A DNA stretch of 64,000 nt, taken from positions 97,090 through 161,089 of the forward strand of contig CAVTSP010000028.1 of NCBI GenBank assembly GCA_963737375.1, written 5' to 3'. The stretch's first letter is position 1; the number at the start of each line of letters is the position of its first letter. Positions 22,425 to 27,755 of this stretch are shown one piece after another. The position numbers were made by a program, and so were the translations under genes. Under the pieces are notes generated by a model. The model was given only the letters and a program-made list of their open reading frames with translations. It did no database searches and was not told where the DNA came from. The DNA is from an uncultured Actinomycetota bacterium (GTDB taxonomy: Bacteria > Actinomycetota > Actinomycetes > Mycobacteriales > Mycobacteriaceae).

Positions 22425-22517
22425 TCATATGTGGTCACATCGCCGACGTTCGGAAGCCGTCAGCCACTTTTACCACCCGCCTGGCGCGCGCTGGCGGGTG
22501 AAGTGCCCGGGCTTGAG

Positions 22518-22523
22518 TATTTT
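22518..22523 (+). promoter_or_regulatory. Candidate -10 hexamer TATTTT, 7 nt upstream of GTG 22531 (leaderless-mRNA geometry) for the Pls-like NRPS gene
   Basis: TANNNT-type hexamer, then cgtacag, then GTG. This matches the spacing described for mycobacterial leaderless transcripts. It is sequence pattern only. Confidence 0.3.
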
Positions 22524-22530
22524 CGTACAG

Positions 22531-25500: not shown

Positions 25501-26427
25501 ATTTACGTGGCGACGACGACGGTCGGCCGGCGGGCGTTTCTGGGTAATTCGGGCATTACCCAACCGGGCCGTCGGGTGCCCGACGACGGACTGGTCGCTG
25601 TCCTGTCCGCGGCTCCCCCGAAGTCGAAGCGTGGTTCATCCTGGTTGGGCAGCCCGCCGATGCGGTTGCGTCGGCGTCCCGCCGAGGCCGACACGATGCG
25701 CACCTACGAACCGCCGTGGCGGTTGAAGGTGATGCGGGCCACCGTGGAGGCGTTCCGGGTTATCCCGGTGATGGTGAGCGCCGCGATCGGGCTCGCGGTG
25801 CTGGGTGCGCTGCAGGCACTGGCTCGGATCTTCGGCATCTGGTCGGCCGCATTGTGCGGTGGGCTGGTCCTGCTGATTGCGGGTGCGTTGGCTGCGGGCG
25901 TCGCGGTCGCCGCGAAATGGCTTCTGGTTGGCCGGATTCGGGCCGGAGAATTTCCGCTATGGTCGTCGTTCGTGTGGCGTAACGAGCTCGCGGACACGTT
26001 TGTGGAGATCGTCGCCGCGCCGTGGTTCGCGCGGGCGGCCAGTGGGACACCGGTGATGAACGTGTGGCTGCGGGCGCTGGGCGCGAGCATCGGCCGCGGC
26101 GCCTGGTGCGAAACGTATTGGCTGCCAGAGGCTGACCTTGTCACGCTCGGCCCGGGAAGCACCGTCAACCGTGGCTGTGTGGTGCAGACCCATCTGTTTC
26201 ACGACAGGATCATGCGGATGGACGAAGTCGTATTCGAGCACGGCGCGACACTGGGCCCGCACGGCGTGGCCTTGCCCTCAGCGCGGCTCGGCGCCGGCGT
26301 CACCGTCGGCCCCGCTTCGCTGGTCGTCCGTGGCGATTCAGTGCCGAAATCGACTCGCTGGCAAGGTAATCCGATCAGGCCATGGAATACGCCCCGAGAG
26401 AAGTCCGGCAAGAAGGCCGCCGCGTGA
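22531..26427 (+). CDS. Pls/PosA-family single-module NRPS (A-T, then three membrane-flanked soluble domains); candidate homopoly(amino acid) synthetase
   Basis: A-domain cores IIFTSGSTGTPKGV, NTYGPTE, YRSGDL, GRADDQVKVGGRRIELGEV, PTRTSGKVDR. Thiolation motif FFALGGGSLAAAQL. Three soluble hexapeptide-repeat-like segments then alternate with hydrophobic helix pairs, e.g. ALGADIGKGVDLHS...IGNDATIGARTTLLPGAVVGKNADVAPGSGV, then LGAKVGRDTEIS...IEDGAFLADDTLV, then LGASIGRGAWCE...LGPGSTVNRGCVV. There is no C or TE domain. The track ORF starts at 22429; GTG 22531 is my preferred start. Confidence 0.85.
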   Translation: MATPQAPERVPAQYLLSSRAAGPRTLIDVLYDTAACFPEAAAIDDGTVQLTYSELISDIEASVAWLAARGIGRGDRIGIRMPSGSFALYEAILATLAAGAAYVPVDADDPDERAELVFNEANVVAIVTEAGMARGPGSSRGWRAAAPLLRDDAWIIFTSGSTGTPKGVAVTHRSAAAFVDAEAQMFLRDNPIGPGDRVLAGLSVAFDASCEEMWLAWRHGACLVPAPRSLVRSGMDLGPWLVSRDVTVVSTVPTLAALWPAEALEAVRLLIFGGEACPPELAARLAVDGREVWNTYGPTEATVVACAARLDADSPVRIGLPLPGWDLAVVDKDGHPVAHGEIGELVIGGVGLARYLDEAKDAEKYAPMPTLGWQRAYRSGDLVRLESEGLVFCGRADDQVKVGGRRIELGEVDSALVHLPGVIGGAAAVRRTAAGTPVLVGYVASADPDFDMTAARALLAEHLPAALVPRLVRVDELPTRTSGKVDRDALPWPPPGGDSEQASDLTGTASWLATLWRDLLGAPVDGPEADFFALGGGSLAAAQLVAVLRDRYPQVTVADLYDHPRLGSLAGFLDELEKPPDVVERRVRPTPRLAQIAQIALSLPLASLAALQWVTWLALGNNVARALHLVPWTVAVNWWLVAAAFVLFVTPLGRMGIAVLAARLLLPNVQPGTYPRGGSLHLRVWLAERLAEASGAGNLAGAPWLVYYARALGADIGKGVDLHSMPPVTGLLTLGHRSAVEPEVDLCGHWVDGDALHVGAIAIGNDATIGARTTLLPGAVVGKNADVAPGSGVVGKVKSRQYWKGSPAVKSGRVKHPWPDERPARRSHWVAVYALTSVLLAAMPLTALVAGLAVIGLSVHHTHRLSEAVQPALYWTPVATVAGLAAYAAMTIIAVRMLSIGLREGYHPVRSRSGWQLWATERLMDGARNYLFPLYASLATPGWLRMLGAKVGRDTEISTVLLTPKFTVIEDGAFLADDTLVASYELGGGWIYVATTTVGRRAFLGNSGITQPGRRVPDDGLVAVLSAAPPKSKRGSSWLGSPPMRLRRRPAEADTMRTYEPPWRLKVMRATVEAFRVIPVMVSAAIGLAVLGALQALARIFGIWSAALCGGLVLLIAGALAAGVAVAAKWLLVGRIRAGEFPLWSSFVWRNELADTFVEIVAAPWFARAASGTPVMNVWLRALGASIGRGAWCETYWLPEADLVTLGPGSTVNRGCVVQTHLFHDRIMRMDEVVFEHGATLGPHGVALPSARLGAGVTVGPASLVVRGDSVPKSTRWQGNPIRPWNTPREKSGKKAAA

Positions 26428-27755
26428 AACGTGCCGCCAAGAAGTCGGCGCCCAGCCAGGCTTCTACCGTGATCGACCCGTACCTGCCCAAGACCGGCAA
26501 CCTCGGCTACCGCGTGTCACGCTATGAGCTGGCTCTGGAGTACAAGGTCTCGATCAACCGACTCTCCGGGTCGGCGACGATCACCGCTGCTGCGCTTGCC
26601 GAGTTGGAAGAATTCACCCTCGACCTCTCCGAGGCGCTGACGGTGTCGAAGGTATTGGTGAACGGCAAGCGCGCCGCCCACTTCGCCTGTCGGATGCGTA
26701 AACTCCGCATCCGACTGTCCTCGAAGCTCGCGTCGGGGGCAGCGATGTCGATCGTCGTTCATTATCACGGTTCACCGCGGCCGTCGCGATCATTGTGGGG
26801 CGACGTCGGTTTCGAGGAACTCACCAACGGCGCTCTGGTCGCCGGACAACCCAACGGGGCCGCATCGTGGTTCCCCTGCGACGACCATCCCAGCGCCAAG
26901 GCCTCGTTCCGCATCCAGATCAGCGCCGAAAGCCCCTACCGGGTGGTCGCCAATGGGCGGCTGGCGTCACGGCGACCGCGGGCGGCGCATATCGAGTGGA
27001 CGTATGAACAACCCGAGCCGACCTCGACGTACCTGATCACTCTGCAGATCGGGATGTACGAGATGACCCGACTCGGCACGGCGCCGGTGCAGATGCGGGC
27101 CGTGTTGCCCGAGCGGCTCCGCCGCCAGTTCTACGAAGACTTCGCCCGCCAACCCGAGATGATGGAACTGTTCGTCGAACTGTTCGGCCCCTACCCGCTG
27201 GCGAATGGTTACACGGTGGTCGTGACCGACGACGATCTGGAGATACCCGTTGAAGCTCAGGGCATTTCGATCTTCGGCGCCAACCATTGTGACGGCACCG
27301 GGGCCAGCGAGCGACTGATCGCCCACGAGCTGGCGCACCAATGGTTCGGCAATTCCGTCACGGCCAGGCAGTGGCGCGACATCTGGTTGCACGAAGGATT
27401 CGCGTGCTACGCGGAGTGGCTGTGGTCAGAACACAGCGGTGGACCCAGCGCCGACCAGCGCGCCCGCCAATATCACCAGAAGCTGCGGGCAGCGCCGCAG
27501 GATCTGCTGCTCGCCGATCCCGGACCGCGCAACATGTTCGACGACCGCGTCTACAAACGCGGCGCATTGACCCTGCACGCGTTACGCGGACGCCTGGGCG
27601 AAGAGAAATTCTTTGCCCTGCTGAAAGACTGGACGACCCGATACCGCCACAGCAACGCCGTCACCGAGGACTTCACCAATCTGGCCGCGGATTACTGCGC
27701 TGAATCGCTGACGCCGTTGTGGGACAGCTGGTTGTACTCGCGGGCCGTGCCCTGA
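26424..27755 (+). CDS. M1-family zinc metallopeptidase (aminopeptidase N-like, ~440 aa)
   Basis: HEXXH-X18-E: IAHELAHQWFGNSV...WLHEGFACYAE. The GAMEN-equivalent segment is degenerate (IPVEAQG) but keeps the Glu. GTG 26424 overlaps the NRPS stop TGA 26425..26427 (GTGA). The longest ORF starts at 26382. Confidence 0.85.
   Translation: MKRAAKKSAPSQASTVIDPYLPKTGNLGYRVSRYELALEYKVSINRLSGSATITAAALAELEEFTLDLSEALTVSKVLVNGKRAAHFACRMRKLRIRLSSKLASGAAMSIVVHYHGSPRPSRSLWGDVGFEELTNGALVAGQPNGAASWFPCDDHPSAKASFRIQISAESPYRVVANGRLASRRPRAAHIEWTYEQPEPTSTYLITLQIGMYEMTRLGTAPVQMRAVLPERLRRQFYEDFARQPEMMELFVELFGPYPLANGYTVVVTDDDLEIPVEAQGISIFGANHCDGTGASERLIAHELAHQWFGNSVTARQWRDIWLHEGFACYAEWLWSEHSGGPSADQRARQYHQKLRAAPQDLLLADPGPRNMFDDRVYKRGALTLHALRGRLGEEKFFALLKDWTTRYRHSNAVTEDFTNLAADYCAESLTPLWDSWLYSRAVP

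Follow-up and report, generated by a model that had tools for sequence, protein, structure and literature searches.

A probable orthologue of the pls-pldII operon for epsilon-poly-L-lysine in a mycobacterial genome

A 64,000-nucleotide stretch of mycobacterial DNA, here called the window, carries on its + strand a gene for a single-module membrane NRPS of the Pls/PosA family, whose stop codon overlaps the start of a gene for an M1 zinc metallopeptidase. [quoted passage not shown] The window pair is one more example of a system that is widespread and already annotated, not of a new kind: both the NCBIfam model TIGR02353 and the antiSMASH NAPAA class already recognise it. The novelty implied by a first-pass annotation of the window is accordingly reduced: close homologues from mycobacteria already bear the RefSeq name "Pls/PosA family NRPS", the NAPAA class routinely flags such clusters, and a table of the PosA paper lists a 'Mycobacterium' homologue with the same lysine code (PMC10522769). 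The same annotation had stated that no characterised mycobacterial homopoly(amino acid) was known to it; none was found in the literature searched, nor was any report of polymer production by a mycobacterium. If confirmed, the product would be the first polymer of the polylysine type to be demonstrated in a Mycobacterium, and would bring a food-preservative pathway into a genus with pathogens, among which M. marinum and M. ulcerans have intact copies.

The longest open reading frame for the pls-type gene spans 22429..26427, and every feature described in the first-pass annotation was found where that annotation had placed it. Translation likely starts at the GTG at 22531, which gives a gene of 22531..26427 with a TGA stop and a product of 1298 aa, because in M. 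paraterrae a frame-breaking deletion of 20 nt lies between the positions corresponding to ATG 22429 and GTG 22531 and because the homologues are mostly 1298-1312 aa long. Conservation picks up again after the M. paraterrae deletion in the block TTGAGTATTTTCGT, directly 5' of GTG 22531. This block is invariant in the window and in loci L001 and L081, and is also found 5' of pls in L002 and L004, whose genomic context differs. The conserved stretch (22504..22530) includes a -10-like TATTTT (22517..22522, 8 nt before the start) and is possibly the promoter of a leaderless transcript. Scans of the pls upstream region for consensus sigma-70 promoters and for terminators were empty, and an Rfam scan of the pheS-pls intergenic region gave nothing at E<=1.

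The encoded synthetase has the order A-T-TM1/2-C1-TM3/4-C2-TM5/6-C3. Its adenylation domain (residues 9-496, 22555..24018) aligns over its full length with that of the S. albulus Pls (PDB 7WEW) at 654 bits. It is followed by a thiolation (carrier) domain (residues 511-573, 24061..24249; PF00550, E 1.6e-13) with the phosphopantetheine serine S538 (codon 24142..24144) in the motif FFALGGGSL (residues 531-539), of which GGGSL is retained in all eight listed motif variants of 80 homologues, together 62 sequences. At E<=0.01, Pfam returned AMP-binding (E 7.5e-62), PP-binding (E 1.6e-13) and Hexapep (E 1.6e-7) only, and neither a condensation nor a thioesterase domain; the synthetase thereby has the one A and one T domain, without the other two, that mark the Pls/PosA family. 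The Pls/PosA terminal-domain model TIGR02353, which the first-pass annotation had named as a check, was matched end to end (residues 597-1282 against profile positions 2-695 of 695) at 736.4 bits against a cutoff of 423.1, and TIGR01733 at 323 bits against 317. Homologue E-values for the synthetase were 0, and chance similarity is therefore ruled out.

Membrane topology was read from hydropathy only (Kyte-Doolittle, 19-residue window), which placed six peaks in three pairs: residues 593-619 and 629-653 (24307..24489; peaks 1.71 and 1.98), 829-861 and 876-902 (25015..25236; 2.31 and 1.85), and 1075-1095 and 1104-1134 (25753..25932; 2.10 and 2.42). The six helices quoted in the first-pass annotation are all present in the translation and coincide with these peaks. 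The helix pairs alternate with the soluble domains C1 (residues 654-828, 24490..25014), which has hexapeptide-type repeats (PF00132 Hexapep at 763-793, E 1.6e-7), C2 (residues 903-1074, 25237..25752) and C3 (residues 1135-1298, 25933..26424). By hhalign comparison the three are mutually homologous, with probabilities of 98.1% for C1-C2 (E 7e-14), 96.4% for C2-C3 (E 1e-9) and 98.8% for C1-C3 (E 9e-17). C1 matched gamma-carbonic-anhydrase and GlmU beta-helix proteins weakly, and C3 likewise gave weak beta-helix matches; searching the PDB by sequence with the C-terminal 708 aa gave weak beta-helix matches only (best E 0.0034) and did not turn up a Pls-type polymerisation domain of solved structure. 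AlphaFold2 models of the membrane/C-terminal part of Pls and of the peptidase, for which mycobacterial sequences 77-94% identical were aligned, were of low confidence (mean pLDDT 52 and 53); we give little weight to the fit of the Pls model's helix/strand pattern to three helix bundles between strand-rich segments.

The specificity code of the adenylation domain, DAESIGTVVK (residues 207, 208, 211, 250, 271, 273, 295, 303, 304 and 484), is invariant in 80 actinomycete homologues and identical to the lysine code, anchored by experiment, that is given for the S. albulus Pls in Supplementary Table 2 of PMC10522769. The predicted product is therefore ordinary epsilon-poly-L-lysine and not a new polymer. 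The first-pass annotation had proposed a cationic polymer whose monomer it left open; the family assignment stands, while the code points to lysine and hence to the known polymer.

The peptidase gene (26424..27755, 443 aa) starts within the synthetase gene at GTGA (26424..26427), a 4-nt overlap of its GTG (26424-26426) with the TGA (26425-26427) of pls. This overlap with an M1 HEXXH-E peptidase, already described in the first-pass annotation, was read directly from the sequence. The protein is a two-domain form, consisting of Peptidase_M1_N (PF17900, 53.3 bits) and Peptidase_M1 (PF01433, 97.9 bits) without a C-terminal domain. It has the features of an M1 gluzincin: HEXXH (HELAH, residues 301-305, 27324..27338), the third zinc ligand E324 (27393..27395) 18 residues on, and the catalytic Tyr377 in DDRVYKRGA, all of them invariant or nearly so among 83 homologues. 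It does not have the GXMEN exopeptidase motif; when compared by hand with GGMEN in LTA4 hydrolase and GAMEN in aminopeptidase N, this position would be occupied by IPVEA, 24 residues before HEXXH, with the Glu alone kept, and it reads IP[LIV]EA in 83/83 pls-linked homologues. No hydrophobic segment was found in the peptidase (maximum Kyte-Doolittle value 1.12). The closest solved structure, PDB 6A8Z/6IFF ('zinc metalloprotease, putative'; E 1.6e-43), is only distantly similar; it is of similar length (474 aa), lacks the classical aminopeptidase N C-terminal domain and has the same HEXXH-E site, and phmmer places the 6A8Z counterpart of the exopeptidase motif five residues further on than our manual register. 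6A8Z/6IFF is not known to be linked to a polylysine synthetase. PldII has been placed on the outer side of the membrane in one paper (PMC9223678), whereas no signal peptide was seen in the window peptidase or in its Streptomyces homologues.

The S. albulus Pls likewise runs from A-T into three tandem soluble domains set among six transmembrane helices, again without a condensation or thioesterase domain, and has the same ten-residue lysine code. The pls-pldII order that the first-pass annotation had described proved correct: in S. albulus the peptidase gene follows pls directly, its start overlapping the pls stop by 4 bp as in the window, in a single operon (PMC4361855) that is translationally coupled (PMC9223678). 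The S. albulus Pls and the polymer-degrading PldII encoded downstream are attributed to Yamanaka et al. 2008 and 2010 in a passage of PMC8506220, and our statements on PldII are drawn from later papers. Direct comparison with S. albulus covered the adenylation domain; for the remainder we used other Streptomyces homologues, namely two loci with split gene calls in which pls is followed by an M1 peptidase gene. The window Pls is 59% identical to a Streptomyces homologue over 1272 aa, and its peptidase shares 51% identity over 434 aa (E 4e-152) with the M1 peptidase encoded after pls in Streptomyces resistomycificus, so that orthology of the peptidase is judged on these other loci and on literature description, not on the S. 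albulus PldII sequence itself. A query with the adenylation domain rebuilt from 7WEW, tried as a route to the full-length S. albulus Pls and PldII, returned partial proteins only. Unlike S. albulus, the window host is a Mycobacterium, in which pheS and a rhomboid-like core gene flank the pair on either side. Corynebacterium variabile, within the order Mycobacteriales by current taxonomy, is a cheese and skin coryneform and not a Mycobacterium. As described in PMC8117764, on which our likening of the two loci is based, it has the same two-gene operon, with a Pls 51% identical to that of S. albulus; epsilon-PL synthetases are reported from coryneform bacteria in that paper, in which C. variabile was tested for production. 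Pls members well diverged from S. albulus are thus still treated there as lysine polymerases.

Synthetase and peptidase are inherited together across Actinomycetota, as judged from gene order and sequence comparison. Co-conservation of the two genes, which the first-pass annotation had anticipated, is evident in 78/80 related genomes from at least 15 genera, where an M1 peptidase gene lies downstream of pls; the stop and start codons overlap in 65/84 loci (by 4 nt in 49 and by 1 nt in 16), and the pairwise identities of Pls and M1 peptidase correlate at r=0.94. The closest homologues are all from Mycobacterium (75-97% identity), the closest relatives are full-length and 91-97% identical, and identity of the synthetase over 1.3 kb of protein is 61-91% in Mycobacteriales and beyond. 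By these comparisons the two genes form a tightly co-inherited module with an invariant lysine code across Mycobacteriales and other actinomycetes. Given this wide distribution, co-inheritance and invariant code, epsilon-polylysine production may be far commoner, and possibly more physiologically important, than the few producers studied would suggest.

The proposed mechanism is modelled on the characterised S. albulus and C. variabile enzymes. The adenylation domain would activate L-lysine with ATP, and the phosphopantetheine arm on Ser538 would receive the lysine as a thioester. C1-C3, arranged in tandem and anchored in the membrane, would repeatedly pass the lysyl group on to free lysine or to the growing chain, at the epsilon-amino group, a transfer that would release a polydisperse polycation without a thioesterase. 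The three helix pairs would leave all soluble domains on the cytoplasmic side, and the chain presumably would exit via the membrane part. Termination-reinitiation at GTGA would couple synthesis of the peptidase to that of the synthetase, and the peptidase would hydrolyse the polymer, protecting the producer as reported for PldII. Because it lacks both a signal peptide and a membrane helix, it is predicted to work inside the cell or at the inner membrane face.

Several other explanations of the pair were weighed against this one. M1 peptidases are common, and in NCBIfam the window peptidase best matches generic models for aminopeptidase N and LTA4 hydrolase, with scores that fall far short of the cutoffs, as might be expected of a housekeeping aminopeptidase lying next to the synthetase by chance. 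That reading is effectively refuted by the co-occurrence of the peptidase with pls, and also opposed to it are the conserved stop/start overlap, the co-evolution with Pls and the joint movement of the pair between genomic contexts. It is highly improbable, if less extremely so, that the synthetase polymerises ornithine, diaminobutyrate, diaminopropionate or beta-lysine into a polymer new to mycobacteria. The Pls/PosA family does include enzymes for all of these monomers, according to the sections of PMC10522769 on family members; however, 10/10 code residues agree with the lysine code, and no monomer-supply genes (aminotransferase, SbnA/B-type) were found adjacent in the window. The same sections tie Ala at code position 2, as in the window, to lysine, with Met tied to Orn and Phe to Dap/Dab, and the Orn, Dab, Dap and S. 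hindustanus codes published there are all unlike the window code. The delta-poly-L-ornithine synthetase PosA of Acinetobacter baumannii illustrates the difference: it shares the TIGR02353 model and the overall architecture with the window protein, whereas its code, DMEHNGTVSK, has a Met at position 2 that sterically excludes lysine, and in those sections no M1 peptidase partner is described for it (PMC10522769).

Very unlikely, too, is a silent or decaying relic without current function in this organism. The sequence gives no sign of expression and no consensus sigma-70 promoter was found, and absence from M. tuberculosis, which is not known to carry the pair, would mean that it is dispensable; yet both frames are intact across 5.2 kb, every catalytic motif is kept, the upstream block is conserved across lineages, and the closest relatives are likewise complete and nearly identical. 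An unlikely reading, but one with more in its favour, is that a Pls-family polymerase here yields a product different from free epsilon-poly-L-lysine (short oligomers of lysine, a chain with another linkage or with modifications, or lysyl chains transferred to a cell-envelope acceptor) in a physiological and not an antibiotic role. The very high conservation of the synthetase across Mycobacteriales and beyond, its intactness in the decaying, reduced genome of M. ulcerans and the apparently cytoplasmic peptidase would all suit such a role, and the C domains and linkers set chain length and acceptor, beyond what a specificity code can read. Against it, C. variabile, with the same pair and a Pls more distant from that of S. 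albulus, is among the coryneforms with epsilon-PL synthetases, and comparison of the flanks, which vary between lineages, revealed no extra tailoring or transfer genes travelling with the pair. Along related lines, we consider it a rather doubtful idea that the mycobacterial pair yields a lysine polycation that stays associated with the cell, or short oligomers cut back by the cytoplasmic peptidase, serving envelope charge, stress tolerance or host interaction instead of a secreted antibiotic. If true, it would explain why the pair is intact in M. ulcerans and is found on M. avium plasmids of clinical origin. It would also fit the M. tuberculosis complex, which is not known to carry the pair.

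Orthology to pls-pldII, the preferred reading, is accompanied by a variable genomic position. The first-pass annotation had regarded the locus as an accessory insertion. The position next to pheS is indeed lineage-specific, being shared by the window with M. paraterrae and a single metagenome-assembled genome; within Mycobacterium and across Mycobacteriales the pair itself is widespread, M. marinum has it intact at a site away from pheS, and M. avium plasmids carry it as well. Insertion of foreign DNA was considered and rejected, as the closest homologues are all from Mycobacterium and identity drops with taxonomic distance, and no tRNA or mobile-element genes were found among the characterised neighbours of the pair. 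Relocation within the genus fits these comparisons better than foreign insertion.

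The synthetase encoded at window 22531..26427 (+) matched the NCBIfam model of the Pls/PosA family of NRPSs, TIGR02353, over the whole profile (residues 597-1282; 736 bits against a cutoff of 423), which bears out the family assignment proposed in the first-pass annotation, and it also scored above the cutoff of the adenylation-domain model TIGR01733. Its Pfam content comprises AMP-binding, PP-binding and one Hexapep repeat and nothing else; the same search found no condensation or thioesterase domain, in agreement with the adenylation-thiolation architecture read earlier from the sequence. 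The carrier serine is S538, within FFALGGGSL. A hydropathy scan gave six hydrophobic segments in three pairs, coinciding with the helices originally quoted; both termini of the protein would be expected inside the cell. The three soluble segments between the helix pairs proved mutually homologous by profile-profile comparison (probabilities of 96-99%). Hexapeptide-like repeats had been ascribed to all three segments; the first gave a significant hexapeptide-repeat match, the other two only weak beta-helix matches. A PDB sequence search turned up no solved structure for the polymerisation region, and the AlphaFold model of this region is of low confidence.

The adenylation domain aligned with that of S. 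albulus Pls (PDB 7WEW) at 654 bits, and long runs of identity surround the substrate pocket. The ten specificity positions, read off the adenylation motifs, spell DAESIGTVVK, and this lysine code is the same in all 80 synthetases examined, the best 80 of at least 578 relatives found in a scan of species-representative genomes. DAESIGTVVK is the code tabulated in the PosA paper for S. albulus Pls, whose proven substrate is lysine, and mutagenesis described there showed that the second code position sizes the pocket, with Ala selecting Lys, Met selecting Orn and Phe selecting Dap/Dab (PMC10522769). The supplementary table of that paper also gives the lysine code for PLV54557.1, labelled Mycobacterium tuberculosis, which we suspect to be a mislabelled assembly. 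For the poly(diamino acid) product suggested beforehand, the code predicts lysine, a known monomer; judged by its sequence, the pair of synthetase and peptidase is one more member of a known, already annotated kind. The outcome of the tests suggested in the first-pass annotation favoured its reading.

The best 80 relatives share 61-90% identity and are distributed among Mycobacterium, Mycolicibacterium, Mycolicibacter, Rhodococcus, Nocardia, Tsukamurella, Williamsia, Gordonia, Dietzia, Kribbella, Amycolatopsis, Kibdelosporangium, Actinosynnema, Paenarthrobacter and Microbacterium. In 78/80 of them pls is followed downstream by an M1 homologue, and pairwise identities of the two proteins are strongly correlated (r=0.94, 80 loci), showing the co-inheritance for which a check had been proposed. 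No M1 homologue was found within 8 kb of pls in two Gordonia loci (L039, L061), and the two genes stand ~0.6-2.2 kb apart in four others, from Tsukamurella (L030, L031), Williamsia (L033) and Gordonia (L043). The stop/start overlap measures 4 nt in 49/84 loci, among them every mycobacterial one, and 1 nt in a further 16/84. In the M. marinum / M. ulcerans cluster (P0116), M. ulcerans Agy99 has a full-length synthetase (1308 aa), and M. ulcerans, a species known for heavy gene decay, carries it on hundreds of contigs.

ORF calling delimited 22429..26427 as the longest ORF across the region and 26382..27755 as a second ORF on the same strand. An intergenic alignment of the window with the two genomes sharing its arrangement, M. 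paraterrae (L081) and a Mycobacterium metagenome-assembled genome (L001), revealed a 20-nt deletion in M. paraterrae between the positions that match ATG 22429 and GTG 22531, so that a reading frame from the upstream ATG would be broken there. Because of this deletion, of the block TTGAGTATTTTCGT immediately 5' of GTG 22531, which is invariant in the alignment, and of the homologue lengths (1298-1312 aa in the majority), we take GTG 22531 as the probable start, giving 1298 aa. The synthetase stop TGA (26425-26427) overlaps the peptidase GTG at 26424, exactly as the first-pass annotation had it; from this GTG the peptidase (26424..27755, +) has 443 aa, the length of most of its homologues. The G+C content across the synthetase (~0.70-0.71) is unremarkable against that of the flanks (0.66-0.69). 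A 15-nt block, GATCATATGTGGTCA, at 22423..22437 (+), ~108 nt 5' of the pls start, forms an imperfect inverted repeat (GATCA-TATG-TGGTC) and does not vary among the window, L001 and M. paraterrae; in other genomic contexts no such block was found ahead of pls. It may be an operator in the divergent pheS/pls region.

The pair is flanked by mycobacterial core genes, with argD, argB, argJ, argC, pheT and pheS on one side and genes for a rhomboid-like protein, an adenylate cyclase, an MpaB/Lcp-family protein and a SpoU methylase, rplT and a lysX-type gene on the other. This arrangement recurs in M. paraterrae (synthetase 91% identical) and L001. M. marinum, M. asiaticum and several further mycobacteria hold the pair in another context common to them, and Mycolicibacterium loci differ from both; the core upstream block accompanies pls in at least two loci of other genomic contexts. 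The lineage-dependent context and the retention of the upstream block point to a compact module relocated within the genus. The accessory insertion at pheS envisaged earlier holds as a derived position in the lineage of the window, but the module itself is not rare. Complete genomes of the M. tuberculosis complex and M. leprae would be expected to lack the pair. The M. marinum-type context includes a diaminopimelate-dehydrogenase-like gene (DAP_DH_C) ~2-6 kb upstream of pls (4954..6039 in the M. marinum loci L082/L083; also in L002, L003, L004 and L010), which could contribute to the supply of lysine. In the window, the lysX-type gene (33206..36595, +) encodes an 1129-aa fusion of a lysyl-tRNA synthetase transmembrane region, a phosphatidylglycerol lysyltransferase and a class II LysRS. 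Its location ~5.5 kb from the pair places two lysine-consuming systems for cationic products in one neighbourhood, a closeness that is probably coincidental since lysX is a core gene here.

In S. albulus, pldII adjoins pls with a 4-bp overlap in one operon (PMC4361855) and is translationally coupled to it (PMC9223678). The gene order given for Streptomyces in the first reading was correct. Two Streptomyces loci agree with it (peptidase 51% and synthetase 59% identical to the window's), and the window pair resembles S. albulus pls-pldII in both the 4-nt overlap and the lysine code. PldII degrades the polymer, with producer protection as its supposed role, and its inactivation left chain length unchanged (PMC8506220). 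Linker residues bearing on chain length were reported by Hamano et al. 2014. A C. variabile homologue with 51% identity to Pls has the same peptidase operon, in a study that tested production and reported epsilon-PL synthetases in coryneform bacteria (PMC8117764). Culture of Streptomyces and of C. variabile has included a second stage at low pH. From the work in Streptomyces and Corynebacterium we infer the chemistry, export route and peptidase substrate of the pair. The antiSMASH NAPAA class covers such loci, which frequently match its reference cluster for epsilon-poly-L-lysine at 100% similarity, as in Rhodococcus and Mycobacteriaceae genome bins; the literature searched contained no report of the polymer from any mycobacterium.

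The peptidase is a short two-domain M1 enzyme with both M1 domains present in Pfam; among solved structures the nearest is PDB 6A8Z/6IFF, a protein of 474 aa. The predicted HEXXH-E signature is borne out by HELAH (301-305) and the third zinc ligand E324, which together with the catalytic Tyr377 are kept in 83 homologues. No hydrophobic segment or signal peptide was found in it, nor in the Streptomyces homologues. Classical M1 aminopeptidases bind the substrate N-terminus through GXMEN. At this site, in a register set by manual alignment, all 83 pls-linked M1 homologues have IP[LIV]EA (window 27240..27254; peptidase residues 273-277 region). PldII cleavage is reportedly of the endo type, and it is a speculation that the replacement could relate to this; IP[LIV]EA may mark an endo-acting M1 subfamily.

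Copies are carried by M. avium, M. intracellulare, Rhodococcus and Streptomyces plasmids as well. The Pls/PosA NRPS of M. avium subsp. hominissuis plasmid pMAH135 (locus L086; NZ_AP012556.1, 62761-66741) is 72% identical to the window synthetase and shares its lysine code, and within 7 kb of it no M1 peptidase was found. The NRPS gene begins in the last 4 nt of a PLP-dependent cysteine-synthase-family gene lying upstream, and it is surrounded by further NRPS genes and by PE/PPE/WXG100 genes of the ESX type. Pls/PosA NRPSs are likewise present on plasmids of M. intracellulare and further M. avium strains.
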